Assembly: GCF_055900595.2 (NCBI RefSeq)
Contig: NZ_CM148325.1
Direction: 5' to 3' (one strand)
Length of the DNA stretch: 64,000 nt
Position numbers and translations under genes: made by a program. This document shows, in pieces, positions 1,013-52,564 of this stretch. Every line of letters begins with the position of its first letter. Position 1 is the stretch's first letter. The notes below the pieces were generated by a model, which made no database searches, was not told the DNA's origin, and saw nothing but the letters and a program-made list of their open reading frames with translations.

Positions 1013-2302
1013 TTAGCTGAACAGAGAGTAGAAGATTGCGGAGATTGCAATCAGACCCATCACGACAACGAATACGTTGCTGATGTGACCGCTGTATTTA
1101 CGCATTGCCGGTACTTTCTGAATTGCGTACATCGGCATCAGGAACAGGATCATCGCGATGATTGGGCCGCCCAGGGTTTCAATCATACCCAGGATGCTCG
1201 GGTTCAGGGTGGCAACAATCCAGGTCGTTACCAGCATGAACAGCGCAGTGATACGGTTCAGCTTGTTGATTTCGATAGACTTACCTTTACCACGCAGAGA
1301 TTTAATCACCATACCGTTGAAGCCTTCACGTGCGCCCAGGTAGTGGCCGAGGAAGGATTTGGTGATAGCGATAATCGCGATAATCGGAGCCATCCACGCG
1401 ATGATCGGCGCGTTAAAGTGGTTAGCCAGGTAAGACAGAATCGAGATGTTCTGCTCTTTAGCCGCAGCCAGGTCTGCCGGAGTCAGGCTCAGTACGCAGC
1501 TGAAGACGAAGAACATTACGGTCAGCACCATCATGATGTGTGCGAATGCCAGGATCTTCGAGCATTTCTGTTCTGCCATATCGCCGTACTCTTCACGCTT
1601 CGCAACGGCGAAAGAAGAGATGATCGGAGAGTGGTTGAACGAGAACACCATGACCGGAATCGCCAGCCACAGGGTCATCCACAGACCGTTGCCGGTTGCC
1701 GATGCAGTGTCCAGAGACAGCGTTTCCAGTGCTGCGCCGTTCCACTGCGGGATCAGGTACAGAGCCAGCAGCATCAGTACACCAACAAACGGGAATACCA
1801 GAATACTCATCGCCTTCACGATCATCTGCTCACCGAAGCGAACAATGGTCATCATACCCACAATCAGGATCAGAGACAGAATCGCACGCGGCGGCGGCGT
1901 CATACCCAGCTGGTGAGACATGAAGCTTTCAACCGTGTTGGTGATTGCCACACTGTAAACCAGCAGGATCGGGTAGATAGCAAAGAAGTAGAGCAGGGTA
2001 ATCAGTTTACCTGCACCAATACCAAAGTGTTCTTCTACAACCTCGGTGATGTCTTCGCCTGGGTTTTTACCAGACAGTACGAAGCGAGTCAGGCCGCGGT
2101 GAGCAAAAAACGTCATCGGGAACGCAAGGATAGCCATGATGATCAGCGGGATCATACCGCCAACACCGGCGTTGATTGGCAGGAACAGCACGCCCGCGCC
2201 GATTGCCGTGCCGTAAAGGCCCAGCATCCACATGGTGTCTGTCTTGCGCCATGCACTACGTGAGTCTTTCGACACAATCGTGCTGGTTTGAGTCGTTTCC
2301 AT
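1013..2302 (-). CDS. sdaC: Serine:H+ symporter SdaC
   Basis: ORF 1013..2305 (430 aa) [21 protein letters not shown]..., multi-pass membrane protein; start taken at second Met to give the recalled 429 aa. Confidence 0.92.
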
Positions 2303-2858
2303 CAATTTCTCCTGGAGGAATGCAAATAATTCAGCTTTTAGCCAGTTCAGCCCGGGAAGGTGCCTGACCGTAAAAATGAAATCTGTCTATCGGCGATGGC
2401 TTAATCATTTTCCGCCGTAATAATTTGAGGGCGGAAAGATACACACAAGTTATGTATCTATCAGTGATCTTGATCTCAAATACAATAATCTACTTGGAAG
2501 ATAGATAATCTCAACGCTTTACTCTGTAAATCAAAAGTAAAAGAGAATTTAAGGGCAATATTTGCCCATTAAACGACATCTGACCTCTTCCGGGGCGCGC
2601 AATATATGTAGGTTGAGCTGAAAAAATCAATACTTTTAGTGAATAATGGGGATAATTTATTTTTCATAGCGATAAAATGTGGTTTGTGAAAACAGGGAAA
2701 CGTTTGCGTTGTAATATAAATTGTATGACATATTAACTGTGATGATGTTTATCGCGTGAGGACGGTAAGAAACATTTATATAACAAATGAAATGAATTGA
2801 TGGGTAAGTAACCAAAAACGAGAAAACCCGGCAACTAATGTCACCGGGGAAGGGGAGA

Positions 2859-4223
2859 TTACGTGCAGATTTCGTAGCAAGGGATGTACGCTGAGCCTGG
2901 CAACTTCATACGATGCTGGGCAACAAAACCCTGTAGCAGGTCGTCCATACGACGCATAATCTCTTTATCGCCGTTGATTTTGTAAGGACCAAACTCTTCA
3001 ATGGCGCGAATACCGACTTCTTTTACGTTACCCGCCACAATACCGGAGAAGGCACGACGCAGATCAGCGGCCAAAACTTCTACTGGCTGATCCGGGTACA
3101 GTTTCAGATTAGCCATGTTCTCGTGAGACGGCTCAAACGGCATTTGCAGATCGGGCGCAATACGCATTGACCAGTTAAAGCTGTAGGCATCGCCCGTATC
3201 GCGACGGTTTTCTTTCACCAGCGGCATCGATTTTTTCATCTGACGAGCGACTTCAGCGGCGTCATCAATGATGATGCGATAATGGCGTCGCGCGTTTTCT
3301 CCCAGCGTATGCACGACAAACTCGTCCAGTACGCGGAAATAGTCGGCGCTCTCTTTTGGCCCGGTGAGGATCAATGGTAAAACCTGATCTTTGTTGGCCG
3401 GATTCATTAAAATTCCCAGCAAATACAGCAACTCTTCTGCCGTACCCACACCGCCAGGGAAGATAATGATGCCGTGAGCGATACGAACAAAAGCTTCCAG
3501 ACGTTTTTCGATATCCGGCATGATGATCAATTCGTTGACCAGCGGGTTAGGCGGTTCAGCGGCGATAATCGACGGCTCTGTCATACCAATAAAACGACTG
3601 TCTTTGTAACGCTGCTGTGCGTGTCCGACCGCAGCACCTTTCATCGGCGCTTCCATCGCTCCCGGACCACAGCCGGTGCAGATATTCAGCTCACGCAGGC
3701 CCAGCTGATTCCCGACGCGACGGGCATACAAATACTCGTTTTCGTTAATTGAGTGCCCGCCCCAGCAGACCACCATATTTGGCGCTTCACCGACATGCAG
3801 CGCACGAGCGTTACGCAAGATGGAAAAGACCAGGTTAGTGATGTGGACGGAGTTGTCGAGATTCAGGTTGGGAAAACGAACGGTGTTATGGATTTGCCCG
3901 TAAACGAAGAGAATGTCACGCAGAACCGCGAACAAGTTGGCCTGCAAAGCGCGGATAATACGCCCATCGACAAAAGCATCTTCCGGTGGATTAATCAGTT
4001 CCAGCTTTACGCCGCGTTCACGGCGCAGGACGTTAATATCGAAATTTTCAAAACGAGACAGCAATTCTTTGCTGTTATCGGTCAAACTACCGGAGTTCAG
4101 TACGGCAAGTGAACAGTTGCGAAACAGTTGATAGAGGTCGCTGCTGGCGGTGCGTTTAAGCATATCCACTTCCAGCTGCGACAACATATCCATGGAGCCA
4201 AGCGGGCTAATATGTGTAATCAA
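2859..4223 (-). CDS. ppnN: Nucleotide 5'-monophosphate nucleosidase PpnN (LOG family, YgdH)
   Basis: 454-aa [27 protein letters not shown]... with PGGxGTxEE LOG-type motif. Confidence 0.88.
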
Positions 4224-20368: not shown

Positions 20369-21160
20369 ATGAATCAAATCGACCGTTTGCTCACTATTAT
20401 GCAGCGCCTGCGCGACCCGGAAAACGGCTGCCCGTGGGATAAAGAGCAGACATTTGCCACCATTGCACCTTACACCCTTGAAGAAACCTACGAAGTGCTG
20501 GACGCCATCGCCCGTGAAGATTTTGACGATCTGCGCGGTGAGCTCGGCGATCTATTGTTTCAGGTGGTGTTTTACGCGCAAATGGCTCAGGAAGAAGGGC
20601 GCTTTGATTTTAATGATATCTGCGCCGCGATTAGCGATAAGCTAGAACGTCGCCATCCACATGTTTTTGCAGGCAGTTCTGCCGAAAACAGTAATGAAGT
20701 GCTTGCCCGTTGGGAGCAAATCAAAACCGAAGAGCGCGCGCAGAAAGCGCAGCATTCGGCGCTAGACGATATTCCTCGTAGTTTACCGGCTTTAATGCGT
20801 GCGCAAAAAATCCAGAAACGTTGCGCCAACGTTGGCTTCGATTGGACGACGCTTGGTCCGGTAGTCGATAAAGTCTACGAAGAGATCGACGAGGTGATGT
20901 ACGAGGCGCGGCAGGCTGTTGTCGACCAGGCTAAACTGGAGGAGGAAATGGGTGACCTGCTGTTTGCCACGGTCAACATGGCCCGCCATTTAGGGACAAA
21001 AGCAGAGATTGCACTACAAAAAGCCAATGAAAAATTCGAGCGCCGTTTTCGCGAAGTGGAGCGTATTGTTGCCGCGCGTGGACTGGAAATGACAGGTGTT
21101 GACCTCGAAACAATGGAAGAAGTCTGGCAACAGGTAAAACGGCAGGAAATTGATCTCTAA
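20369..21160 (+). CDS. mazG: Nucleoside triphosphate pyrophosphohydrolase MazG
   Basis: 263-aa ORF MNQIDRLLTIMQRLRDPENGCPWDKEQTF... Confidence 0.92.
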   Translation: MNQIDRLLTIMQRLRDPENGCPWDKEQTFATIAPYTLEETYEVLDAIAREDFDDLRGELGDLLFQVVFYAQMAQEEGRFDFNDICAAISDKLERRHPHVFAGSSAENSNEVLARWEQIKTEERAQKAQHSALDDIPRSLPALMRAQKIQKRCANVGFDWTTLGPVVDKVYEEIDEVMYEARQAVVDQAKLEEEMGDLLFATVNMARHLGTKAEIALQKANEKFERRFREVERIVAARGLEMTGVDLETMEEVWQQVKRQEIDL

Positions 21161-24469: not shown

Positions 24470-25375
24470 TTACCAGCGGCCAGACGCGCCGCCACCGCCA
24501 GAAGAACCGCCACCTCCGCTAAATCCGCCGCCACTTGAGCCGCCACCGGAAGAGGATGAAGAAGAACCTTTTCTTGAAGCTCTTTCTTTACCGAGCGTCT
24601 TGTATTTGGCTCGTAGCTTTTTATTAACGATAAGCCAAAAGATAAGCAGCGCTACGATCGCAAAAGGCGTTAACATACCGCAGGCAACGATTAAATTCGT
24701 CCATGGTCCTGGCTCGGCAACATAGAGGAATACCATCCCGTAAATTGCGGCAGTGAGAGTTATCCAGGGTAGATTCGACGGATCGGTAAAAACAATAAAA
24801 TATGAAAGCACTGCCAGCAATATAAGTACAGCAAGCGAAAATGGGATAGGGGGATTGATACTGTAATAATTCCCCCTGCCTTCCGGTAATTCACCATTCA
24901 TCAGAAGTGCGCCGATATTTTCGCTTGCCAGTGTTACCCCCCCCATCAGGTCATCACTTTTGAAAGCAGGGATTAATATATCACGGATAATCTTTGCCGC
25001 TTGCAGGTCGGTAACCACCCCTTCCAGCCCATAGCCGACTTCTATACGAACAGCATGATCTTCCCAGGCAACCAGAAGTAAAATGCCATCGTTTCGCTGC
25101 TTATCTCCCAGTTTCCAGCTATCAAAAACGCGTGTTGCATATTGTTCAATGGTATCGTCTCCGGTGGATGGCACTATTAATACGGCAACCTGTGCCCGTG
25201 TTTTTTGTGTAATATCCTGCAGCTGTTGTGTCAGTGATTGTTGTTCAGACGTGCTTAAGGTACCAGTAATATCGGTCACATGTTGGCGCAGCTCCGGCAC
25301 AGCAATTTGCTGGGCAAGCACAGGAAGGCACCATAAAGTGAGTAGAAAAAGGATTATACGCATAACGATCACCAA
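24470..25375 (-). CDS. TPM-domain membrane protein (YgcG family), paralog 1
   Basis: 301-aa ORF with signal peptide, TPM-like region, two TM segments and Gly/Ser tail ending GGGASGRW. Confidence 0.8.
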   Translation of the reverse strand: MVIVMRIILFLLTLWCLPVLAQQIAVPELRQHVTDITGTLSTSEQQSLTQQLQDITQKTRAQVAVLIVPSTGDDTIEQYATRVFDSWKLGDKQRNDGILLLVAWEDHAVRIEVGYGLEGVVTDLQAAKIIRDILIPAFKSDDLMGGVTLASENIGALLMNGELPEGRGNYYSINPPIPFSLAVLILLAVLSYFIVFTDPSNLPWITLTAAIYGMVFLYVAEPGPWTNLIVACGMLTPFAIVALLIFWLIVNKKLRAKYKTLGKERASRKGSSSSSSGGGSSGGGFSGGGGSSGGGGASGRW

Positions 25376-26517
25376 CGGCCGGATGAACCGCCACCGCCAG
25401 AAGAACCGCCGCCACCGCGGAAAGAGTTTTTCGACGAAGAGCGAGAATGAGCATTACGATTCCCCATTTTCCTGTTGATTTTATGTCCTGATCCCAGTTT
25501 AAGATTGCCAGTAAATTTGGCCACAATGATCAGCAGAACGATGCCAGCAATGGTTATTGGGCCGATAAAATGATCAATTAGCCCAATAATTGTTGAGATG
25601 AACGCAATATCTTTATTACTGGCAAATACCAGGCACCATCCCACAACAATTATCAGCAGCACGACAAACAATGAATTTCGTCCTGATTCACGAACCTGCG
25701 GAGCCTTCTTTTGTTTTTTCACTTTAGCGTTTTTATTTTGGGGGGCCAGCATCATAGGAAATGCGCGGCATATATTAAAAACTACCGCGAGACGCTGCCA
25801 GTAGATTGCTGCGAAAAATAAACTAAAACAAACGACCGATACCCGTCGAATGATGACATCGTTCTGAAAGCAGAAAAACCAGACCATAGGGGTAATCATC
25901 GATATCATCCATATGCCAGGCCCTGGATGGGTGGTAAATCGCCAGAGGACAACGATGGCAACGATCATCAGCAGTGTCCAGGCAAGACATGGCAGAGAGC
26001 GTTGCGGATTAGCAAACAGATGATTGGCTAAAGCATCCAAAGGGCTAAGATTCGCTTTTATATAGGTAAACTGTGCAATGCCTTCAATTCCCTGCGTTAA
26101 CCCGGAGAAGAGATTATTTTTTTTGAATTCCGGTTGCATATGGTAATGAACAATTTGCGCAGCTTGTTCCGGTGGCAGCATCTCTTCCAGTCCATGCCCA
26201 ATCTTCATTGACGCCAGCCCTTCCGGCCAAACGACGAGAATTAAGATACCTTCGCCGTACCGCTTCTCTCCAACAGGTTTCCAGTGATATAACCCGTAGC
26301 TTTGCGAGGCTGCAAGTTTAATGTCTTTACCCCCAGTGGTCGGCGTTACCAACACGGCAACCTGAAAGTGGTTTTGCTGCTCGAGAGTCTGTAATTGTTG
26401 AGTTAAAGCAGTTTGTTCTTCTGTCGTTAATGTCCCGGTTAAGTCAGTTACTGAAGGCAATTGTTCAGCGAATGCCTGGAAACCACATAGCATCAGAAGT
26501 AAGAGAAAAATACGCAT
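25369..26517 (-). CDS. TPM-domain membrane protein, paralog 2 (extended multi-TM region)
   Basis: 382-aa ORF, signal peptide plus TPM-like N-terminus, about five hydrophobic segments, tail GGGGSSGGGGSSGRW. Confidence 0.75.
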   Translation of the reverse strand: MRIFLLLLMLCGFQAFAEQLPSVTDLTGTLTTEEQTALTQQLQTLEQQNHFQVAVLVTPTTGGKDIKLAASQSYGLYHWKPVGEKRYGEGILILVVWPEGLASMKIGHGLEEMLPPEQAAQIVHYHMQPEFKKNNLFSGLTQGIEGIAQFTYIKANLSPLDALANHLFANPQRSLPCLAWTLLMIVAIVVLWRFTTHPGPGIWMISMITPMVWFFCFQNDVIIRRVSVVCFSLFFAAIYWQRLAVVFNICRAFPMMLAPQNKNAKVKKQKKAPQVRESGRNSLFVVLLIIVVGWCLVFASNKDIAFISTIIGLIDHFIGPITIAGIVLLIIVAKFTGNLKLGSGHKINRKMGNRNAHSRSSSKNSFRGGGGSSGGGGSSGRW

Positions 26518-26531
26518 TTCAATTCCTTTTG

Positions 26532-27464
26532 TTACCAGCGCCCGGAGGCGCCACCGCCGCCAGATGAACCGCCGCCGCCGCTGAAATTATCATTGTCAAA
26601 AGAGGATGAAGAGGAAGATGACGACGATGATGAAGAACGCCTGGAGGCCGAGTTACTTCTTTCGTAATGTGACGGTCGGTTGGCACTGCGCATCGAATCC
26701 CGAACCTTTTTGCCGAAGGGGGTAAAAGCGATGGCGACAGCCAGGAACGGTGTGGCGAAGCAGAGTAATGTTGCGAGTACTCCCCAGCTTCCGCTGAAAC
26801 CTGCTATAGGTAAAACAAAGGCCAGTACAATAGCTGTGAAGCAAATTAGTCCCAGCGTTTTGACATATCCTCTGGCGGAAATAAAGGTCAGTACTATTGC
26901 CCAGACTAACAAAGCCCACCAACCGTTAAAGGGCAAAGGGTGATCGGTCGGTGTTATCGTTGCTAAATTATTCCCCGTCAGACGATTATCAATATCGCTT
27001 ATTCCCTTTTGCAAGCCGCCAGCCAGGTCGCCATTTTTAAATGCCGGAATAATACTGTTGCGAATAATTTTCCCGGACTGCGCATCCGTAATAACGCCTT
27101 CCAGTCCGTAACCGACTTCAATACGCACGGTATGATCCTGCCAGGCGACTAACAGTAGAACGCCATCATCGCGGTCTTTATCACCCGGTTTCCAGCTATC
27201 GAATACCCGCGTAGCGTACTGCTCGATGGTTTCATCGCCCGTTGTTTCAACCACTAACACGACCAGTTGTGCGTGGCTTTTTTGCGTCAGCTCTTTAATC
27301 TGATTGGTCAACGTATTTACTTCATCGTTCGTCAATTTGCCGGTTAAGTCATTCACATACCTGGGTGATTCAGGTACTGGAATTTGTATGGCAAACACAG
27401 ATGAACAAAAGAAAGCCATAAGGAAGATAAAATTTCGCACAGGACTTCCTCGCTTAATGAGCAT
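26532..27464 (-). CDS. TPM-domain membrane protein, paralog 3
   Basis: 310-aa ORF, strongly similar to paralog 1 through ATRVFDSWKPGDK...LLLVAW..HTVRIEVGYGLEGV; Ser run and tail GGGGSSGGGGASGRW. Confidence 0.8.
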   Translation of the reverse strand: MLIKRGSPVRNFIFLMAFFCSSVFAIQIPVPESPRYVNDLTGKLTNDEVNTLTNQIKELTQKSHAQLVVLVVETTGDETIEQYATRVFDSWKPGDKDRDDGVLLLVAWQDHTVRIEVGYGLEGVITDAQSGKIIRNSIIPAFKNGDLAGGLQKGISDIDNRLTGNNLATITPTDHPLPFNGWWALLVWAIVLTFISARGYVKTLGLICFTAIVLAFVLPIAGFSGSWGVLATLLCFATPFLAVAIAFTPFGKKVRDSMRSANRPSHYERSNSASRRSSSSSSSSSSSSFDNDNFSGGGGSSGGGGASGRW

Positions 27465-28056
27465 TAGTATTCTGGCTAAAATCTATTGTCGGGGCTTTAC
27501 TCACAGCGGCGACATCATCCGGCAAATAATTTTTCTTTGGTGTGTAATCCATAACCTTTGCGGTTAACACTGCGGGGAATTTGCGGATAGTGACATTATA
27601 TTGTTCAATAGCTTTAATATATCTTCCTCGCGCAACGGCAATTCGATTTTCACTTCCTTCGAGCTGTACCATCAAATTTTGATAGAGTTCCTGGGCCTTT
27701 AGCTCAGGGTAACGTTCACTAATTATCGTTAACTGACCGAGAGTGCGAGACACCTGCGCCTGAGCTTGTTGCCAGGTTTGTAATTTTTGTTCATCTCCCG
27801 GAGTTTGCTGAAGAGCACTACTGGCGCGATTAGCCTGACTACGTGCCAATGTTACGGCTTCCAGTACCTCTTGTTCATGGCTGGAATAACCTTTAATACT
27901 GGCGACAAGATTAGGAATAAGATCGGCGCGACGTTGATATTGATTTAATACCTCAGACCAGGAAGCGTTAACCTGCTCATCATAGGTTTGAATATCGTTA
28001 TATCCACAGCCTGATAAATTGAAAATAAATATAATTACGATGAATGTTCTGAGCAT
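27454..28056 (-). CDS. lemA: LemA-family protein
   Basis: 200-aa ORF with N-terminal lipoprotein-like signal (LSGCGY) and coiled-coil-rich body typical of LemA; stop overlaps the start of TPM paralog 3. Confidence 0.8.
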   Translation of the reverse strand: MLRTFIVIIFIFNLSGCGYNDIQTYDEQVNASWSEVLNQYQRRADLIPNLVASIKGYSSHEQEVLEAVTLARSQANRASSALQQTPGDEQKLQTWQQAQAQVSRTLGQLTIISERYPELKAQELYQNLMVQLEGSENRIAVARGRYIKAIEQYNVTIRKFPAVLTAKVMDYTPKKNYLPDDVAAVSKAPTIDFSQNTNAH

Positions 28057-28128
28057 GGTTAAATCCCTTTTAATTAATTCCTTAAAACATAATACGCCAC
28101 TTCATTTTATTCTTTATGATCTAATCCA

Positions 28129-28137
28129 CTTTTTGCC
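28129..28137. repeat. IS10 target-site duplication, left copy (CTTTTTGCC)
   Basis: Identical 9-mer directly abuts both IS10 ends. Confidence 0.9.
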
Positions 28138-29466
28138 CTGAGAGATCCCCTCATAATTTCCCCAAAACGTAACCATGTGTGAATAGATTTTGAGTAAGCA
28201 GGGTTGCAGCCACGAGTGAGTCTTCCCTTGTTATTGTGTAGCCAGAATGCCGCAAAACTTCCATGCCTAAGCGAACTGTTGAGAGTACGTTTCGATTTCT
28301 GACTGTGTTAGCCTGGAAGTGCTTGTCCCAACCTTGTTTCTGAGCATGAACGCCCGCAAGCCAACATGTTAGTTGAAGCATCAGGGCGATTAGCAGCATG
28401 ATATCAAAACGCTCTGAGCTGCTCGTTCGGCTATGGCGTAGGCCTAGTCCGTAGGCAGGACTTTTCAAGTCTCGGAAGGTTTCTTCAATCTGCATTCGCT
28501 TCGAATAGATATTAACAAGTTGTTTGGGTGTTCGAATTTCAACAGGTAAGTTAGTTGCTAGAATCCATGGCTCCTTTGCCGACGCTGAGTAGATTTTAGG
28601 TGACGGGTGGTGACAATGAGTCCGTGTCGAGCGCTGATTTTTTCGGCCTTTAGAGCGAGATTTATACAATAGAATTTGGCATGAGATTGGATTGCTTTTA
28701 GTCAGCCTCTTATAGCCTAAAGTCTTTGAGTGACTAGATGACATATCATGTAAGTTGCTGATAGGTTTCCAGTTTTCCGCTCCTAGGTCTGCATATTGTA
28801 CTTTTCCTCTTACTCGACTTAACCAGTACCAACCCAGCTTCTCAACGGATTTATACCATGGCACTTTAAAGCCAGCATCACTGACAATGAGCGGTGTGGT
28901 GTTACTCGGTAGAATGCTCGCAAGGTCGGCTAGAAATTGGTCATGAGCTTTCTTTGAACATTGCTCTGAAAGCGGGAACGCTTTCTCATAAAGAGTAACA
29001 GAACGACCGTGTAGTGCGACTGAAGCTCGCAATACCATAAGCCGTTTTTGCTCACGGATATCAGACCAGTCAACAAGTACAATGGGCATCGTATTGCCCG
29101 AACAGATAAAGCTAGCATGCCAACGGTATACAGCGAGTCGCTCTTTGTGGAGGTGACGATTACCTAACAATCGGTCGATTCGTTTGATGTTATGTTTTGT
29201 TCTCGCTTTGGTTGGCAGGTTACGGCCAAGTTCGGTAAGAGTGAGAGTTTTACAGTCAAGTAAGGCGTGGCAAGCCAACGTTAAGCTGTTGAGTCGTTTT
29301 AAGTGTAATTCGGGGCAGAATTGGTAAAGAGAGTCGTGTAAAATATCGAGTTCGCACATTTTGTTGTCTGATTATTGATTTTTGGCGAAACCATTTGATC
29401 ATATGACAAGATGTGTATCCACCTTAACTTAATGATTTTTACCAAAATCATTAGGGGATTCATCAG
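28138..29466 (-). mobile_element. IS10 (IS4 family), complete 1329-bp copy
   Basis: Ends CTGAGAGATCCCCTCATAATTTCCCC (inside end) and, on the reverse strand, CTGATGAATCCCCTAATGATTTTGGT (outside end); exact length 1329 bp; 402-aa transposase; flanked by 9-bp direct repeat. Confidence 0.93.
28151..29359 (-). CDS. IS10 transposase
   Basis: 402-aa ORF MCELDILHDSLYQFCPELHLKRLNSLTLACHALLDCK... Confidence 0.93.
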   Translation of the reverse strand: MCELDILHDSLYQFCPELHLKRLNSLTLACHALLDCKTLTLTELGRNLPTKARTKHNIKRIDRLLGNRHLHKERLAVYRWHASFICSGNTMPIVLVDWSDIREQKRLMVLRASVALHGRSVTLYEKAFPLSEQCSKKAHDQFLADLASILPSNTTPLIVSDAGFKVPWYKSVEKLGWYWLSRVRGKVQYADLGAENWKPISNLHDMSSSHSKTLGYKRLTKSNPISCQILLYKSRSKGRKNQRSTRTHCHHPSPKIYSASAKEPWILATNLPVEIRTPKQLVNIYSKRMQIEETFRDLKSPAYGLGLRHSRTSSSERFDIMLLIALMLQLTCWLAGVHAQKQGWDKHFQANTVRNRNVLSTVRLGMEVLRHSGYTITREDSLVAATLLTQNLFTHGYVLGKL

Positions 29467-29475
29467 CTTTTTGCC
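29467..29475. repeat. IS10 target-site duplication, right copy (CTTTTTGCC)
   Basis: Matches 28129..28137 exactly. Confidence 0.9.
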
Positions 29476-29566
29476 TTAAACCTGCCTGTAACAGAATGTT
29501 AATAAGACATGATTGTTGTGGCAGGATCTGCAATAATTAACAATTATCCACTTCACAGAGAATGCT

Positions 29567-30238
29567 ATGCAGTACCCGATTAACGAGATGTTCCAGACCC
29601 TGCAAGGTGAGGGTTACTTTACCGGCGTCCCCGCCATTTTTATTCGTTTACAGGGATGCCCGGTCGGCTGTGCCTGGTGCGACACCAAACACACCTGGGA
29701 AAAGCTTGAGGATCGGGAAGTCTCCCTTTTCAGCATTCTGGCGAAGACCAAAGAGAGTGATAAGTGGGGGGCGGCGAGCAGTGAAGATTTGCTGGCTGTC
29801 ATTGGTCGTCAGGGATACACCGCGCGGCATGTGGTGATTACGGGTGGTGAGCCTTGCATTCATGATTTGCTGCCACTGACTGACCTGCTCGAAAAGAACG
29901 GTTTTAGCTGCCAGATCGAAACCAGCGGTACTCATGAAGTACGCTGCACGCCGAATACCTGGGTTACCGTATCGCCAAAGCTGAACATGCGCGGCGGCTA
30001 TGAAGTGTTGTCACAGGCACTGGAACGAGCCAACGAAATCAAGCATCCAGTGGGACGCGTACGTGATATTGAAGCACTGGATGAACTACTGGCAACGCTG
30101 ACCGATGATAAACCACGAGTCATTGCACTGCAGCCAATTAGCCAGAAGGACGATGCCACACGTTTGTGCATTGAAACCTGTATTGCGCGTAACTGGCGTT
30201 TATCGATGCAAACACATAAATATTTAAATATTGCCTGA
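29567..30238 (+). CDS. queE: 7-carboxy-7-deazaguanine synthase QueE (radical SAM)
   Basis: 223-aa ORF with CPVGCAWCDT radical-SAM cysteine motif. Confidence 0.9.
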   Translation: MQYPINEMFQTLQGEGYFTGVPAIFIRLQGCPVGCAWCDTKHTWEKLEDREVSLFSILAKTKESDKWGAASSEDLLAVIGRQGYTARHVVITGGEPCIHDLLPLTDLLEKNGFSCQIETSGTHEVRCTPNTWVTVSPKLNMRGGYEVLSQALERANEIKHPVGRVRDIEALDELLATLTDDKPRVIALQPISQKDDATRLCIETCIARNWRLSMQTHKYLNIA

Positions 30239-38634: not shown

Positions 38635-39391
38635 AGCCGAACCGGATGCCGGAATGCTGGCGGAAAAAGAGTGGCAGGCAGCGGCTCAGGGTAATAGCGG
38701 ACCGGATGTTTCGCTTCTGCGAAGTTTACTCGGTGCTGATGAACAGGCTGCCGCCGCGCTGCTGTTGGCGCAGAGAAAAAACGGTATGTCGATGTCTTTA
38801 ACCGCGTTGAGCATGGGGGATGAACGGGCGTTGCACTGGCTGCGCTATCTCATGGCTCTTGGGTTTGAGGAAGCTGTATTGCTGGAGACGGCGGCAGATA
38901 TGCGCTTTGCGCCGGAATTTGTCGCTCGCCATATTGCCGAATGGCAGCGCCAGAATCCGCTGGATCTGATCATTACTGGCTGCCAGAGCAGCGAAGGGCA
39001 GAACGGGCAAACGCCATTTTTGCTGGCGGAAATGCTGACCTGGCCCTGCTTTACCCAGGTGGAGCGTTTTACTCTCGACGCACCGTTTATCTCGCTCGAA
39101 CAGCGTACTGAACATGGATTACGCTGTTGTCGGGTTCGCTTGCCTGCGGTGATTGCCGTGCGCCAGTGTGGCGAGGTGGCCTTGCCAGTACCGGGAATGC
39201 GCCAGCGAATGGCTGCGGGGAAAGCTGAAATTATCCGCAAAACTGTTACTGCTGAATCGCCAGCGATGCAGTGCCGGCAACTGGAAAGGCCAGAGCAACG
39301 ACGCGGTGCAACGCTTCTTGATGGGCCAACGGTAGCAGAAAAAGCGCAAAAACTGTGGCGGGATTATTTGTGCCAGAGGATGCAGCCATGA
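38612..39391 (+). CDS. ygcR: Electron-transfer-flavoprotein beta-subunit-like protein (FixA-like)
   Basis: 259-aa ORF; start overlaps the ygcS 3' end. Confidence 0.8.
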   Translation: MNILLAFKAEPDAGMLAEKEWQAAAQGNSGPDVSLLRSLLGADEQAAAALLLAQRKNGMSMSLTALSMGDERALHWLRYLMALGFEEAVLLETAADMRFAPEFVARHIAEWQRQNPLDLIITGCQSSEGQNGQTPFLLAEMLTWPCFTQVERFTLDAPFISLEQRTEHGLRCCRVRLPAVIAVRQCGEVALPVPGMRQRMAAGKAEIIRKTVTAESPAMQCRQLERPEQRRGATLLDGPTVAEKAQKLWRDYLCQRMQP

Positions 39392-40248
39392 ATATCGCAA
39401 TTGTGACAATAAATCAGGACCATGCCGCAATAGCGAGCTGGCTGGCGGAGCAGGATTTCAGCGGCAGCACATTAACGCACTGGCAAATCGAGCCGCAGCC
39501 GATGGTCGCGGAACAGGTGCTGGATGCGCTGGTAGAACAGTGGCAGCGAACGCCTGCGGACGTTGTTCTCTTTCCGCCGGGAACGTTTGGCGATGAACTG
39601 GCTACCCGCCTGTCCTGGCGTTTACATGGTGCCAGTATATGCCAGGTGACTTCATTAAATATTCCAACCGGAAGCGTACGCAAATCCCACTGGGGAAATG
39701 CGCTAACGGCGACGCTGCAAACAGAAAAACGCCCGCTATGCCTTTCCCTTGCCCGCCAGGCGGGAGCAGTGAAAAATGCCACGTTGCCCTCTGGTATGCA
39801 GCAACTGAACATTGTCCCCGGCGCGCTTCCCGACTGGCTGGTTAGCACAGAGGATCTGAAAAATGTTACCCGTGACCCATTAGCTGAGGCCAGACGGGTG
39901 CTGGTGGTGGGGCAGGGCGGAGAGGCAGATAACCAGGAAATCGCTATGCTGGCAGAAAAGCTGGGAGCCGAAGTGGGCTACAGTCGGGCGCGAGTAATGA
40001 ACGGTGGCGTTGATGCCGAAAAAGTGATTGGTATTTCCGGACATCTGCTGGCACCTGAGGTGTGTATTGTTGTTGGCGCTTCCGGCGCAGCAGCGTTAAT
40101 GGCGGGCGTCCGCAATAGCAAGTTTGTGGTGGCGATTAATCATGACGCCAGCGCGGCGGTATTTTCACAGGCAGATGTTGGCGTGGTTGATGACTGGAAA
40201 GCGGTGCTGGAGGCACTGGTGACAACCATTCACGCAGATTGCCAATAA
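39388..40248 (+). CDS. ygcQ: Electron-transfer-flavoprotein alpha-subunit-like protein (FixB-like)
   Basis: ORF from MNIAIVTINQDHAAIASWL...; ATGA overlap with the ygcR stop. Confidence 0.8.
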   Translation: MNIAIVTINQDHAAIASWLAEQDFSGSTLTHWQIEPQPMVAEQVLDALVEQWQRTPADVVLFPPGTFGDELATRLSWRLHGASICQVTSLNIPTGSVRKSHWGNALTATLQTEKRPLCLSLARQAGAVKNATLPSGMQQLNIVPGALPDWLVSTEDLKNVTRDPLAEARRVLVVGQGGEADNQEIAMLAEKLGAEVGYSRARVMNGGVDAEKVIGISGHLLAPEVCIVVGASGAAALMAGVRNSKFVVAINHDASAAVFSQADVGVVDDWKAVLEALVTTIHADCQ

Positions 40249-40261
40249 CGTGCTGCCGGAT

Positions 40262-40365
40262 GATCCTGCCTACGGTTCTGGGCTGGGGACTTGTAAGCCT
40301 GATAAGACGCGTCAAGCGTCGTATCAGGCGCTGAATGTCGGATGTGGCGTGCAGCCTACAAATCA
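40262..40365. repeat. REP/BIME-type extragenic palindromes
   Basis: GCCTGATAAGACGCG...CGTCGTATCAGGC and related GCCGGATG / GTCGGATG units between convergent ygcQ and ygcP. Confidence 0.7.
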
Positions 40366-40394
40366 CACAAATTCAATTCGTTACGATTATCTCG

Positions 40395-40970
40395 TCAAAG
40401 CAATTTTTTCGCTAACGTCCAGACCCCGGTATTCGTGGTAGAAAGCGCCACTACACCGGCGTTAATCGCATTACGCGCATCTTCTTCATCGCACACCAGC
40501 CCGCCAGCAACCAGCGGCTGGTGGATTTTCTCCGTTACCCAGCCCAGTACTTTAGGCATACAGCCTGGCAGAATTTCAATACAATCCGGGTTCGATTGCG
40601 CAACCTGTTTATCAATGTTGTGAAATGAAATCGAATCAACAATAAACAAGCGATGAATACAGAAAAAGCCTTCCGCTCTCGCCGCTTTTAGCATTGACGC
40701 TTTGGTACTGATAATGCCGTCCGCCTCGGTCACCAGTTTCAGAAACTGAATTACTACTTCTTTATTTGACGCGCCTTCCAGCAAATCGACATGAATAAAA
40801 GCATATTTTCCGGCGTTCTTAATCTTTTTGACGATATGACTGATGGTGCAAATATTGCCGTACAACACGGAAATAAACCGGCATTCAGAGTCGATTGCCA
40901 GTTGCAGGCTGGCATTGTCTTTAACGGCAGCAATCACCGGATTCTGGCGGAGCAGGTGTAAGAGGGGCAT
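40395..40970 (-). CDS. ygcP: GlpP-like (glycerol-3-phosphate-responsive antiterminator family) protein
   Basis: 191-aa ORF MPLLHLLRQNPVIAAVKDNASLQLAIDSE... Confidence 0.8.
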   Translation of the reverse strand: MPLLHLLRQNPVIAAVKDNASLQLAIDSECRFISVLYGNICTISHIVKKIKNAGKYAFIHVDLLEGASNKEVVIQFLKLVTEADGIISTKASMLKAARAEGFFCIHRLFIVDSISFHNIDKQVAQSNPDCIEILPGCMPKVLGWVTEKIHQPLVAGGLVCDEEDARNAINAGVVALSTTNTGVWTLAKKLL

Positions 40971-46800: not shown

Positions 46801-46838
46801 TGTAGGCCTGATAAGACGCGTAAGCGTCGCATCAGGCA
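46801..46838. repeat. REP element
   Basis: TGTAGGCCTGATAAGACGCGTAAGCGTCGCATCAGGCA palindrome between cysI and cysH. Confidence 0.75.
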
Positions 46839-47855: not shown

Positions 47856-48008
47856 ATGCTGACAAAATATGCCCTTGTGGCAATCATCGTACTGTGTTGT
47901 ACAGTACTGGGATTCACGCTGATGGTAGGCGACTCGTTGTGTGAGTTGAGTATCAGAGAACGTGGTATGGAGTTTAAGGCAGTTCTCGCTTACGAATCGA
48001 AGAAGTAG
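47856..48008 (+). CDS. Hok/Gef-family type I toxin peptide (hokX-like)
   Basis: 50 aa [50 protein letters not shown]: one TM helix plus Hok C-terminal signature; GGGAGG RBS at 47844; GC hairpin ACGCGGGGGTAAAACCCCGCGT follows the stop. Confidence 0.7.
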
Positions 48009-48246
48009 CCACCACGCGGGGGTAAAACCCCGCGTATTGAATTGTGATGGTTTGGTCTCCTGCACCCTTTTTTTCATTTATATTGTTTTTGTGAATATTA
48101 TGCCTGTGTTTATTATTTATATATATCACCAATGAAAATCATTGAATTATTTACAATGTAAATATTTTATTGAACGATATATATCACAGATAATTCTTAA
48201 TATATGCGTAAATATCCTTTAAGTTTTACTGAAGGATAAAAACATT

Positions 48247-50904
48247 GTGACTTTCTTTGATTTCTGGGGAAAAACCCGACGTGGCGAGAAAGAGGGTGGC
48301 GACGATTATCACCTTCTTTGCTGGCATTCGCTGGATGTAGCCGCGATAGGCTATTTAATGGTCAAAAACAACTGTTTCGGGCTGGCTGACTATTTTCGTC
48401 AATTAGGTTTCGCTGACACGGATCAGGCAGCACAATTTTTCGCCTGGTTGTTGTGCTGGCACGATACTGGAAAATTTGCCCGCTCATTTCAGCAACTTTA
48501 CCTGCACCCACAACTCAAGGTTCCGGAAGGCGCAAGAAAGAATTACGAAAAGATCTCTCATTCAACGCTGGGTTACTGGTTGTGGCATCATTATTTAATT
48601 GAATGTGAAGAGTTGCTTCCTTCATCTTCACTCTCTTTGCGCAAACTTAAACGGGTAATAGATATGTGGATGCCCGTGACGACCGGGCATCATGGTCGGC
48701 CTCCTGACCGTATCGATGAACTGGACAACTTTCTGCCTGAAGACAAAGCTGCCGCACGAGATTTTCTCCTTGCAATCAAGTCACTGTTTCCGCTCATAGA
48801 GATCCCCACATTCTGGGATGATGACGAGGGCGTTGAACTTATAAAACATCTTTCCTGGTATATATCTGCAACCGTCGTACTCGCAGACTGGACGGGATCG
48901 TCAACGCGGTTTTTTCCACGCGTCGCACATGTAATGGATATTAAAGATTACTGGCAGAATGCTTTAGCTCAGGCTCAAAACGCATTAACCGTCTTTCCTC
49001 CAAAAGCAGAAACCGCACCTTTCACTGGAATTAACACGCTGTTTCCTTTTATTGAGAACCCAACACCGTTACAGCAAAAGGTGCTGGATCTGGATATCAG
49101 CCAGCCAGAACCGCAGTTGTTTATTCTGGAAGATGTGACTGGCGCAGGTAAAACAGAAGCGGCGCTTATCCTGGCGCACAGGTTGATGTCTGCGGGTAAC
49201 GCTCAGGGGCTGTTTTTTGGTTTGCCGACAATGGCAACGGCCAATGCCATGTACGATAGGCTGGTCAAAACCTGGCTTGCTTTCTATTCGCCGGAATCCC
49301 GCCCCAGCCTGGTGCTGGCACACAGCGCTCGTTCGCTAATGGATCGCTTTAACGCATCGCTGTGGTCTGGTGATTTTGTGGGGTCAGAAGAACCGGATGA
49401 ACAAGCGTTCAGTCAGGGATGTGCGGCCTGGTTTGCTGGCAGTAACAAGAAGGCGTTGCTGGCTGAAATTGGCGTCGGCACGCTGGATCAGGCGATGATG
49501 GCGGTGATGCCGTTCAAACATAATAATCTGCGGCTTCTGGGGCTGAGTAACAAAATCCTGCTAGCCGATGAGATCCACGCCTGTGACGCTTATATGTCGT
49601 GCATTCTTGAAGGGCTGATCGAGCGGCAGGCGCGTGGCGGAAACAGCGTTATTTTGCTTTCTGCTACGTTGTCTCAACAGCAGCGTGACAAACTCGTCGC
49701 CGCCTTTGCGCGTGGTGCAGAGGGCCAGCAAGAAGCTCCGTTGCTGGAAAAAGATGATTATCCCTGGCTGACGCATGTCACGAAATCCGATGTGCATTCG
49801 CACCGGGTAGCGACGCGCAAAGACGTTGAGCGCAGCGTGAGTGTGGGTTGGCTTCATAGCGAACAAGAGTGTATTGCGCGTATCGAATCGGCGGTAAGTC
49901 AGGGGAAATGCATCGCCTGGATTCGGAATTCTGTCGATGACGCCATCCAGGTTCATCGTCAGCTGCTTGCCCGCGGCGTCATTCCTGCTTCCAGCCTTTC
50001 ACTTTTTCATAGCCGCTTTGCTTTTAGCGATCGCCAGCGAATTGAAACGGAGACGCTGGCACGCTTTGGTAAAGAAGACTGTTCACAGCGTGCCGGAAAA
50101 GTCCTCATTTGTACTCAGGTCCTGGAGCAGAGCGTCGACTGCGACCTGGACGAAATGATTTCCGACCTTGCCCCTGTTGATTTACTGATCCAGCGAGCAG
50201 GGCGATTACAGCGACATATCCGCGATATTAATGGTCAGTTAAAGCGTGACGGTAAAGACGAGCGTCACCCTCCTGTATTGCTGATTCTGGCCCCCGTCTG
50301 GGACGACTCTCCGGGTGAAGAATGGTTTGCCAGTGCCATGCGTAACAGTGCATTTGTCTATCCCGATCATGGGCGAATCTGGTTGACGCAGCGTGTGCTG
50401 CGTGAACAAGGCGCGATTCAGATGCCACACTCAGCCCGGCTTCTGATTGAATCAGTCTACGGTGAGGACGTGGTAATGCCGGAAGGGTTTGCCCGCAGCG
50501 AGCAGGAGCAAGTGGGCAAATACTACTGCGATCGTTCAATGGCTAATAAGTTTGTGCTGAACTTCAGGCCCGGCTATGCCGCCAATATCAACGATTACCT
50601 TCCGGAAAAACTGTCGACACGTCTGGCTGAGGAGTCTGTTTCCTTGTGGTTGGCTACCTGTATTGACGGTGTGGTGAAGCCTTATGCCACTGGCGCTCAC
50701 GCATGGGAAATGAGCGTTGTCAGAGCGCGCCAAAGCTGGTGGAAAAAACATCGGGATGAGTTTTCTTTACTGGAAGGGGATGCGTTCAGGCAGTGGTGCG
50801 TTGAACAGCGGCAAGATCCGGAGATGGTAAATGTGATTTTAGTTACCGATGACGAAAGTTGCGGGTATTCGGCTACGGAGGGATTGATTGGCAAGGTTGG
50901 TTGA
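48247..50904 (+). CDS. cas3: Cas3 HD-nuclease/helicase (type I-E)
   Basis: 885-aa ORF (GTG start) with HD motifs, Walker A TGAGKTEAAL and DEIH box. Confidence 0.9.
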   Translation: MTFFDFWGKTRRGEKEGGDDYHLLCWHSLDVAAIGYLMVKNNCFGLADYFRQLGFADTDQAAQFFAWLLCWHDTGKFARSFQQLYLHPQLKVPEGARKNYEKISHSTLGYWLWHHYLIECEELLPSSSLSLRKLKRVIDMWMPVTTGHHGRPPDRIDELDNFLPEDKAAARDFLLAIKSLFPLIEIPTFWDDDEGVELIKHLSWYISATVVLADWTGSSTRFFPRVAHVMDIKDYWQNALAQAQNALTVFPPKAETAPFTGINTLFPFIENPTPLQQKVLDLDISQPEPQLFILEDVTGAGKTEAALILAHRLMSAGNAQGLFFGLPTMATANAMYDRLVKTWLAFYSPESRPSLVLAHSARSLMDRFNASLWSGDFVGSEEPDEQAFSQGCAAWFAGSNKKALLAEIGVGTLDQAMMAVMPFKHNNLRLLGLSNKILLADEIHACDAYMSCILEGLIERQARGGNSVILLSATLSQQQRDKLVAAFARGAEGQQEAPLLEKDDYPWLTHVTKSDVHSHRVATRKDVERSVSVGWLHSEQECIARIESAVSQGKCIAWIRNSVDDAIQVHRQLLARGVIPASSLSLFHSRFAFSDRQRIETETLARFGKEDCSQRAGKVLICTQVLEQSVDCDLDEMISDLAPVDLLIQRAGRLQRHIRDINGQLKRDGKDERHPPVLLILAPVWDDSPGEEWFASAMRNSAFVYPDHGRIWLTQRVLREQGAIQMPHSARLLIESVYGEDVVMPEGFARSEQEQVGKYYCDRSMANKFVLNFRPGYAANINDYLPEKLSTRLAEESVSLWLATCIDGVVKPYATGAHAWEMSVVRARQSWWKKHRDEFSLLEGDAFRQWCVEQRQDPEMVNVILVTDDESCGYSATEGLIGKVG

Positions 50905-50995
50905 GATGCCTGCGACAGGATTCTCTGAATAGTTGATACACAAAAAAGGATGGAAGGATGGATAACCGACCTGGGATGGTCTTTTTTACGAGAGG

Positions 50996-52564
50996 ATGCG
51001 TATGAACTCGTTTTCACTTCTGACAACCCCGTGGTTGCCCGTTCGTTATAAAGACGGAACGACAGGCAAACTGGCGCCAGTCGATCTGGCGGATGAAAAT
51101 GTTGTCGATATCGCTGCGCCGCGGGCAGATCTCCAGGGGGCGGCATGGCAGTTTTTGCTGGGACTACTACAAACCAGCTTCGCGCCCAAAAATCACGGTC
51201 GTTGGGATGATATCTGGGAAGACGGGCTGGAGGTTGAAAAGCTACGGGAAGCATTGCTGTCTTTAGAACACGTTTTCCAGTTTGGCCCAGATTCCCCTTC
51301 ATTTATGCAGGATTTCGAGGCGCTTACGGGAGATAAAGTTCCGGTAGCTTCATTACTGCCTGAAATTCCCGGCTCTCAAACGACGAAGTTTAATAAAGAC
51401 CACTTTATCAAGCGTGGTGTAACGGAACACCTGTGCCCCCATTGCTTAGCATTGGCCTTGTTCTCTTTACAGTTGAATGCACCAGCGGGCGGCAAAGGCT
51501 ATCGCACCGGTTTGCGCGGCGGTGGGCCGATGACGACGCTGATTGAATTGCAGGAATATCAGGGCAATCAACAAACTCCCTTGTGGCGCAAACTGTGGCT
51601 CAACGTGATGCCGCAGGATGAATCTGACTTACCGCTACCCAAAAAATTTGACGATCTGGTTTTCCCCTGGCTTGGCCCGACGCGTACCAGTGAACTGGCC
51701 GGTGCGGTGGTAACTGATGATCAGGTCAACAAACTCCAGGCGTACTGGGGAATGCCTCGGCGCTTACGTGTTGATTTTAATACCACGACAGTCGGCAACT
51801 GCGATATTTGCGGTGAGCAGAGCGACGCGCTCCTGAGCCTGATGACGACCAAAAATTACGGTGCGAATTATGCCATGTGGCAGCATCCCTTAACGCCCTA
51901 CCGTGTACCACTTAAAGAGGGCGGCGAGCTTTACTCGGTCAAGCCACAACCGGGCGGTTTAATCTGGCGCGACTGGTTAGGTCTTATCGAAACGGGTAAG
52001 TCAGAAAACAATACGGAATTTCCCGCGCTGGTGGTGAAACTCTTTAATGCCAGCAGTCTGAAACAGGCAAAAGTGGGCCTGTGGGGATTTGGCTATGATT
52101 TCGACAACATGAAAGCGCGCTGTTGGTACGAACACCATTTCCCGCTACTGCTCAATAAAAAAGAAGGCCAGATACCAAAGCTGCGGCTGGCTGCGCAAAC
52201 GGCTTCACGGATTCTAAGTCTGTTACGGAGTGCATTGAAAGAAGCATGGTTCTCCGATCCAAAAGGTGCACGGGGTGATTTCAGTTTTGTGGATATCGAC
52301 TTCTGGAACAAAACTCAGCATCGCTTCCTGAGGTTAGTGCGTCAAATTGAAGAAGGTCAGGAGCCGGATGAATTACTCAGCAAATGGCAAAAGGAAATGT
52401 GGTTATTCGCGCGTCAGGATTTTGACGAGCGGGTATTCACTAATCCTTATGAGCCCGTTGATTTGAAACGCGTCATGACCGCGCGCAAGAAATATTTTAC
52501 AACATCGGCGGAGAAGCAAAGTGCTAAAGCCGCCAGGGAGAAAAAGCAGGAGGCTGCTGAATGA
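50996..52564 (+). CDS. casA: Cascade large subunit Cse1/CasA
   Basis: 522-aa ORF in the cas3-cse1-cse2-cas7-cas5-cas6e order; start may be the Met at 51002. Confidence 0.85.
   Translation: MRMNSFSLLTTPWLPVRYKDGTTGKLAPVDLADENVVDIAAPRADLQGAAWQFLLGLLQTSFAPKNHGRWDDIWEDGLEVEKLREALLSLEHVFQFGPDSPSFMQDFEALTGDKVPVASLLPEIPGSQTTKFNKDHFIKRGVTEHLCPHCLALALFSLQLNAPAGGKGYRTGLRGGGPMTTLIELQEYQGNQQTPLWRKLWLNVMPQDESDLPLPKKFDDLVFPWLGPTRTSELAGAVVTDDQVNKLQAYWGMPRRLRVDFNTTTVGNCDICGEQSDALLSLMTTKNYGANYAMWQHPLTPYRVPLKEGGELYSVKPQPGGLIWRDWLGLIETGKSENNTEFPALVVKLFNASSLKQAKVGLWGFGYDFDNMKARCWYEHHFPLLLNKKEGQIPKLRLAAQTASRILSLLRSALKEAWFSDPKGARGDFSFVDIDFWNKTQHRFLRLVRQIEEGQEPDELLSKWQKEMWLFARQDFDERVFTNPYEPVDLKRVMTARKKYFTTSAEKQSAKAAREKKQEAAE

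Follow-up and report, generated by a model that had tools for sequence, protein, structure and literature searches.

The ygcQ-ygcP junction of Escherichia coli holds a partly decayed BIME-2-type REP cluster (REP201), whose single surviving hairpin is a probable accessory protector of both transcript ends

REP325, a BIME-2 array at yjdM-yjdN and the source of naRNA4, stabilises the mRNA upstream of it and also attenuates transcription, partly in a Rho-dependent manner. REPs are located in 207 of the 704 convergent spacers of E. coli (about 30%), where they correlate with higher expression of both genes, and Rho-terminated transcripts are proposed to be trimmed by exonucleases and then protected by REP hairpins. 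On a genome-wide scale, no association of terminal REPs with longer mRNA half-lives was seen. According to Liang et al., a REP represses translation when its hairpin is positioned 15 nt or less from the stop codon; according to Ton-Hoang et al., GTAG and the bubble in the stem are both needed for binding and cleavage by TnpA-REP. The insertion sequence IS1397 is described as specific for the palindromic units of BIMEs, into which it inserts. For the gene pair ygcP/ygcQ, REP201 was tabulated as 'Convergent' at MG1655 positions 2894809-2894875 (supplement, bioRxiv 10.64898/2026.03.23.713779); the K-12 spacer itself extends over 2894772-2894918. Catalogued under this name, the cluster at the ygcQ/ygcP junction is already known and is an ordinary feature, i.e. 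a member of the commonest class of E. coli intergenic repeat in the commonest context of that class. The match with REP201 of K-12, listed as convergent between ygcP and ygcQ, agrees with the original prediction, which had located a REP/BIME cluster at the convergence point of the two ygc operons. In the copy of RefSeq NC_000913.3 that was used, neither this site nor the clear REP between cysI and cysH carries a REP feature, and CRISPR arrays are missing as well; because this copy is devoid of repeat features even at the clear cysI-cysH REP, its annotation gap is uninformative.

The window, i.e. the whole 64,000-nt stretch of DNA that was analysed, is E. coli chromosome, with 100% identity to strain RMDEC465 and 95.5% identity to K-12 over the spacer stretch. 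The spacer at 40249-40394 comprises exactly 146 nt between the stop codons of ygcQ and ygcP. On the plus strand, ygcQ (39388-40248; electron transfer flavoprotein alpha/FixB family) terminates with TAA at 40246-40248 and is the final gene of its putative operon; on the minus strand, ygcP (40395-40970; GlpP-family antiterminator) has its stop at 40395-40397 and is likewise the final gene. Both were assigned from the ORF list and the annotation, for ygcQ the RefSeq annotation of the 100% identical record NZ_CM177019.1. Small gaps and overlaps between neighbouring ygc genes are compatible with two operons. The interval had been predicted to be bounded by these two stops and to be the meeting point of ygcWUSRQ and ygcNOP; coordinates and flanks were correct by ORF list and annotation, and the gene order, ygcW-U-S-R-Q (+) against ygcN-O-P (-), confirmed the convergence. 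Two small ORFs, 40250-40441 (+) and 40136-40366 (-), were taken as spurious; they cross REP sequence and enter the opposite gene. In one E. coli O157:H7 genome, ygcQ was annotated as a pseudogene with an internal stop (locus positions 239-1099), and in strain FDAARGOS_1251, ygcN was annotated as frameshifted (locus positions 2084-2346), which suggests that the ygc genes are dispensable in some lineages. Expression of ygcP and ygcQ was weak, with mean counts of 59 and 242 in one RNA-seq table (bioRxiv 10.64898/2026.03.23.713779). In one differential-expression table of the same preprint, ygcP and ygcN were significantly up, with log2 fold changes of 1.64 and 2.48, respectively.

Elsewhere in the window, several regions deviate from K-12. 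Only 95 nt (20992-21086) separate relA and mazG, where K-12 has the mazE-mazF pair and the aMEF antisense RNA, so that the strain is without mazEF. An IS4 copy was located just downstream of eno (25237-30215 region), beside a cluster of LemA/TPM-domain genes, one of them a pseudogene; this cluster is larger than in K-12, which has just the single ygcG. Of the type I-E CRISPR-Cas locus (about 48206-51110), all that remains is a frameshifted, truncated cas3 pseudogene followed directly by iap, at a site where K-12 has cas3, casA-E, cas1 and cas2. The annotation also places a gene for a Hok/Gef family toxin at about 47858-48010, between cysH and what is left of cas3; in K-12, this position is occupied by the small RNA locus sokX.

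Within the spacer, the first 5 nt after the ygcQ stop (40249-40253) are followed by a BIME-2-type REP cluster spanning 40254-40359, in the order y(iREP)-linker-z2(REP)-linker-y(iREP). A non-REP tail of 35 nt (40360-40394), delimited by spacer comparison, adjoins the ygcP stop; this tail is kept in Escherichia and missing in those genera where the stops overlap. The central unit is an intact z2-type REP (40293-40330, plus strand), recognised by inverted repeat, tail pattern, copy number, folding and alignment to REP325. It consists of GTAA (40293-40296) and the palindrome GCCTGATAAGACGC-GTCAA-GCGTCGTATCAGGC, with the stem at 40297-40310/40316-40329 and the loop GTCAA at 40311-40315. In the repeat scan, the two stem arms, 14 nt each and 93% complementary, formed the sole inverted repeat of the spacer. 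Unit-by-unit folding gave -22.9 kcal/mol on the plus and -22.0 kcal/mol on the minus strand (z = -5.7 and -5.9 vs. shuffles, respectively); the hairpin folds in both transcripts and is the only real palindrome of the cluster. The unit shares 34/37 positions with the z2 units of REP325 (K-12 allele: 36/37) and matched the REP tail pattern with 1 mismatch, a pattern with just one other occurrence in 64 kb, between cysI and cysH. At the latter position, between the cysI stop and the cysH start and hence in tandem context, a single intact z2-type REP (46802-46838) was found, the sole other clear REP of the window. A 51-nt stretch with the central unit matched at least 40 places per genome in 5365 E. 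coli records. The central unit thus has the extragenic position, high copy number and REP-like sequence of the REP family, and is an imperfect palindrome in the 30-40 nt range expected of a REP, which neither flanking unit is. Against Rfam, naRNA4 (RF02564) gave a partial, sub-threshold match at 40297-40329 (28.4 bits vs. a gathering score of 59.5, model positions 45-76 only), which is taken to reflect shared REP sequence. The remaining Rfam matches in the spacer were regarded as noise.

On both sides of the central unit, remnants of y-type iREPs were identified. The first, at 40254-40273 (plus strand), reads TGCCGGATG followed directly by ATCCTGCCTAC and was assigned by alignment to REP325 and to other Escherichia and by folding. 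It starts 5 nt past the ygcQ stop, has lost its apical 15 nt and has no hairpin left: apart from one 15-nt gap it matches the REP325 y unit at 19/20 positions, its aligned counterpart in E. whittamii and E. albertii is a full-length y unit, and it folds at -3.5 kcal/mol (z = 0.02), no better than shuffles on either strand. A tail-to-tail linker of 19 nt, GGTTCTGGGCTGGGGACTT (40274-40292; comparison with REP325), leads to z2, and a head-to-head linker, CTGAA (40331-40335; read from the sequence), leads from z2 to the third unit; wherever an Escherichia locus has a z2 unit, CTGAA is kept. The third unit, TGTCGGATGTGGCGTG followed by CAGCCTAC (40336-40359, plus strand; Escherichia and REP325 alignment, folding), is a y-type iREP remnant with 11 nt of the 3' arm deleted, 22/24 identical to the REP325 y unit apart from gaps in the 3' arm. 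On the plus strand it still folds weakly (-10.9 kcal/mol, z = -2.1), but no hairpin forms on the minus strand. In E. albertii and MOD1-EC7003, the sequence aligned with it is a full-length y unit; the 11-nt gap is common to K-12, E. whittamii and SCPM-O-B-8794. Both y-unit deletions were present in 7/7 aligned E. coli alleles. A search of the window with the 11-nt head motif TGCCKGATGCG at 2 mismatches returned 63 matches vs. 44 expected and is too unspecific to validate the remnants; when folded as a whole, the spacer did not differ significantly from shuffles on either strand (z = -1.5 for each). Not their own statistics but positional homology identified the flanking pieces as y-REP remnants, full-length y units being present at the same positions in E. 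whittamii, E. albertii and MOD1-EC7003. The cluster shows the alternation of y and z2 units with short linkers that characterises BIME-2, though both y units of E. coli are truncated. Several REP-type palindromes had been predicted in the spacer; REP-family sequence is indeed present, and the number of palindromes was overstated, as there is one inverted repeat accompanied by two hairpin-less or weak remnants.

The z2 unit itself differs from the K-12 allele at two points. In place of the conserved GTAG 5' of the stem foot, the window has GTAA; GTAG is present in K-12, O157 and 3/4 of the other E. coli loci aligned, and the y remnants retain the complementary CTAC. GTAA is a point mutation in an otherwise clear member of the REP family. 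The stem of K-12 contains a two-base AA/GC bubble, which in the window is reduced to one mismatch through a C>T exchange (CGCATC to CGTATC). With GTAG changed to GTAA and the stem bubble half closed, the allele of the window has undergone further decay.

Across genomes, the cluster was found with 93-100% identity and in the three-unit layout in 4813 of 5426. Both genes were present in 39 loci from other genomes, and in every one of them ygcP and ygcQ were convergent. In 23 of these loci there is an overlap of 4-17 nt between the two ORFs, with no spacer and often with TTAA shared as both stops (around locus positions 3560-3580), so that the two mRNAs must overlap at their 3' ends without spacer or terminator between them. 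Within Escherichia, spacers of 64 nt with one truncated y (SCPM-O-B-8794), 75 nt with one intact y (Escherichia sp. MOD1-EC7003), 160 nt with y - z2 - truncated y (E. whittamii), 214 nt with 4-5 units (a record titled E. coli E69) and 267 nt with y - z2 - y - z2 - y (E. albertii) were recorded; tandem copy number is thus variable in these five genomes (1, 1, 3, 4-5 and 5 units), as is typical of BIME-2. Some Citrobacter and Klebsiella genomes have REP-like palindromes of their own at the ygcP/ygcQ junction. Since the spacer is absent in most other genera and the number of units varies in Escherichia, the cluster represents a secondary, lineage-specific colonisation of a permissive site and not a part of the ygc system. 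REPs are non-autonomous repeats spread by the RAYT/TnpA-REP transposase. Judged by the comparisons between species, a y/z2 array would have colonised the junction of ygcQ and ygcP within the Escherichia lineage, the unit number would then have shifted between species (1 to 5), and in E. coli both y units would have lost their hairpins via short internal deletions, leaving one z2 hairpin. The genus-level series, from overlapping stops through one unit, five units and a decayed three-unit array to IS1397 insertion, cleanly illustrates how a BIME passes through its life cycle.

The last stage of this series is an insertion into the loop of the remaining hairpin. The spacer was split in about 289/5102 matching E. 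coli genomes, and in two split-spacer isolates that were examined, IS1397 (1432 bp; locus positions 1569-3000 in both) was located in the z2 loop (window 40311-40315). In the first isolate it is flanked by the target-site duplication TCAA (40312-40315); in the second it is inserted in the opposite orientation and one base over, with the duplication GTCA (40311-40314). The two junction types were found in 291 and 6 complete genomes, respectively (~297/5426, about 5% of E. coli). Because both orientations and different 4-bp duplications occur, IS1397 arrived at the z2 hairpin in at least two independent events. Both ygcQ and ygcP were annotated as intact in the two IS1397-bearing strains examined. 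Given the specificity of IS1397 for palindromic units of BIMEs, its REP-specific transposase treats the z2 unit as a REP. No description of the ygcQ/ygcP site of IS1397 or of its frequency was found in the literature examined. The strains bearing IS1397, among them JCH8249 (NZ_CP132020.1) and 09A19CPO009 (NZ_CM148343.1), are ready natural mutants for measuring the function of a REP between convergent genes.

With regard to function, the reading considered probable is that of a partly decayed BIME-2-type cluster, REP201, whose z2 hairpin protects the 3' ends of both mRNAs in an accessory and dispensable manner. The hairpin starts downstream of both stops, 48 nt from that of ygcQ and 65 nt from that of ygcP, and would form part of the 3' UTR in either convergent mRNA. 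It is followed by GCUGAAUG on the plus and by UUACAAGUCC on the minus strand, with no U-tract on either, and is therefore not an intrinsic terminator; the candidate was rejected, as the combination of a G+C-rich hairpin with a succeeding U-tract occurs on neither strand, and a promoter and terminator scan of 40249-40394 returned no site. Lacking a U-tract, the hairpin would not bring about intrinsic termination, and transcription would be expected to continue into the opposite gene. G exceeds C on the plus strand inside ygcQ and C exceeds G inside ygcP, and since each read-through RNA is antisense to the opposite gene, this GC skew renders both C-rich. Being untranslated, C-rich and antisense, the read-through RNA would most likely be terminated by Rho inside the opposite gene, whereupon 3'->5' exonucleases would trim it back to the z2 hairpin, which would set and protect the steady-state 3' end. 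The hairpin may also attenuate transcription partially and in a Rho-dependent manner. A Rho-binding region (with NusG) in the sense direction of ygcQ was mapped to MG1655 2894960-2895053 (bioRxiv 10.64898/2026.03.23.713779), corresponding to window positions 40114-40207 (plus strand) by arithmetic from the ygcQ stop; tabulated as 'Proximal' (85 nt) to REP201 and lying in the last ~135 nt of ygcQ, this region was obtained in vitro, is NusG-dependent and is situated in G-rich sense RNA. The supplements of Adams et al. 2021 and TERMITe contained no 3'-end records for ygcP/ygcQ, and a full-text literature search for the 3' ends of these genes yielded nothing relevant. The role of bidirectional transcript stabiliser or terminator, which the original prediction had offered for the palindromes as a group, follows the standard hypothesis for convergent REPs and is plausible; on physical grounds it would be open to the one surviving hairpin only. 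Most genera lack the cluster, and IS1397 splits the hairpin in about 5% of E. coli; any such effect is thus accessory and not required for the ygc genes.

A purely selfish or neutral REP array, decaying at a permissive gene-end site with no measurable effect on either operon, is a possible alternative, about half as likely as the main explanation. Two of the three units are already disabled by deletions, both features needed for TnpA-REP (Ton-Hoang et al.) are impaired in the window, with GTAG now GTAA and the stem bubble half closed, the number of units ranges from 1 to 5 within the genus while most other genera have no spacer at all, the insertion of IS1397 is tolerated in about 297 genomes, and terminal REPs have no general effect on half-life. 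Against this alternative, 3' exonucleases should for physical reasons be impeded by a hairpin of -22 kcal/mol in a transcribed 3' UTR, and convergent pairs containing a REP are on average more highly expressed. The conservation of the three-unit layout at 93-100% identity in 4813/5426 genomes likewise speaks against it, though short divergence times may explain this.

Two linked further readings of the locus are regarded as unlikely. The y hairpin is intact in E. whittamii, E. albertii and MOD1-EC7003 and begins there about 6 nt past the ygcQ stop; this is the reported geometry for ribosome stalling, so that loss of the hairpin would de-repress YgcQ synthesis. It is conceivable, at low probability, that the loss of the stop-proximal y hairpin in E. 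coli via the 15-nt deletion was selected for this reason. In the companion reading, the loop of REP201 is a recurrent landing site of IS1397, with at least two independent hits, so that about 5% of the E. coli sequenced would be natural knock-outs of this REP in which the effect of a REP at a convergent junction could be measured.

Positive supercoiling accumulates in convergent spacers, and a BIME-2 that binds DNA gyrase could relieve positive supercoils between the converging units; about 60% of REP elements being located between convergent genes would suit such a role at the DNA level. For this locus it is nevertheless improbable, since both y partners of the y-S-z2 arrangement are truncated in E. 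coli, leaving the documented substrate incomplete, the operons are weakly expressed, and species with overlapping stops manage without the cluster. Least credible is a bidirectional intrinsic (Rho-independent) terminator, or a stop-proximal REP that stalls terminating ribosomes and lowers YgcQ synthesis: the symmetry of the hairpin between convergent genes and the start of REP sequence 5 nt past the ygcQ stop, inside the 15-nt limit for translational repression, would fit, but no U-tract or A-tract flanks the hairpin, the spacer scan revealed no terminator-like site, the stop-proximal unit has no hairpin (z about 0), and the working hairpin lies 48 nt and 65 nt from the stops, beyond that limit. 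A stop-proximal REP repressor of the type defined by Liang et al. was accordingly rejected for the window, the unit 5 nt from the ygcQ stop being unable to fold.

Compared with the described systems, the cluster is closest to REP201 of K-12, which is the same element at the same locus and aligns base for base with window positions 40292-40358 (z2, CTGAA and truncated y). The two differ in GTAG and CGCATC of K-12 vs. GTAA and CGTATC of the window, and the catalogued interval leaves out the first y remnant at 40254-40273. As target sites of IS1397 go, the z2 loop insertion behaves as a typical one, with no difference. With REP325, the cluster shares alternating, oppositely oriented y and z2 units, short linkers and, at 90-97%, the identity of the units; the 17-nt tail-to-tail linker of REP325 resembles the 19-nt linker at this locus (13/15 aligned bases, with gaps), and copy number differs between genomes as in BIME-2 arrays such as REP325. 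In contrast, REP325 comprises 12 intact units in a tandem-gene context, whereas one intact and two deleted units are found here in a convergent context, and its head-to-head linker measures 11 nt instead of 5 nt. The REP mRNA stabilisers and Rho-associated REP 3' ends described previously (Newbury et al. 1987; Espeli et al. 2001; Dar & Sorek 2018) have in common with the z2 unit a stable G+C-rich hairpin without U-tract in the 3' UTR and C-rich untranslated RNA downstream; at ygcQ/ygcP, a protected 3' end and Rho dependence are predicted ones.
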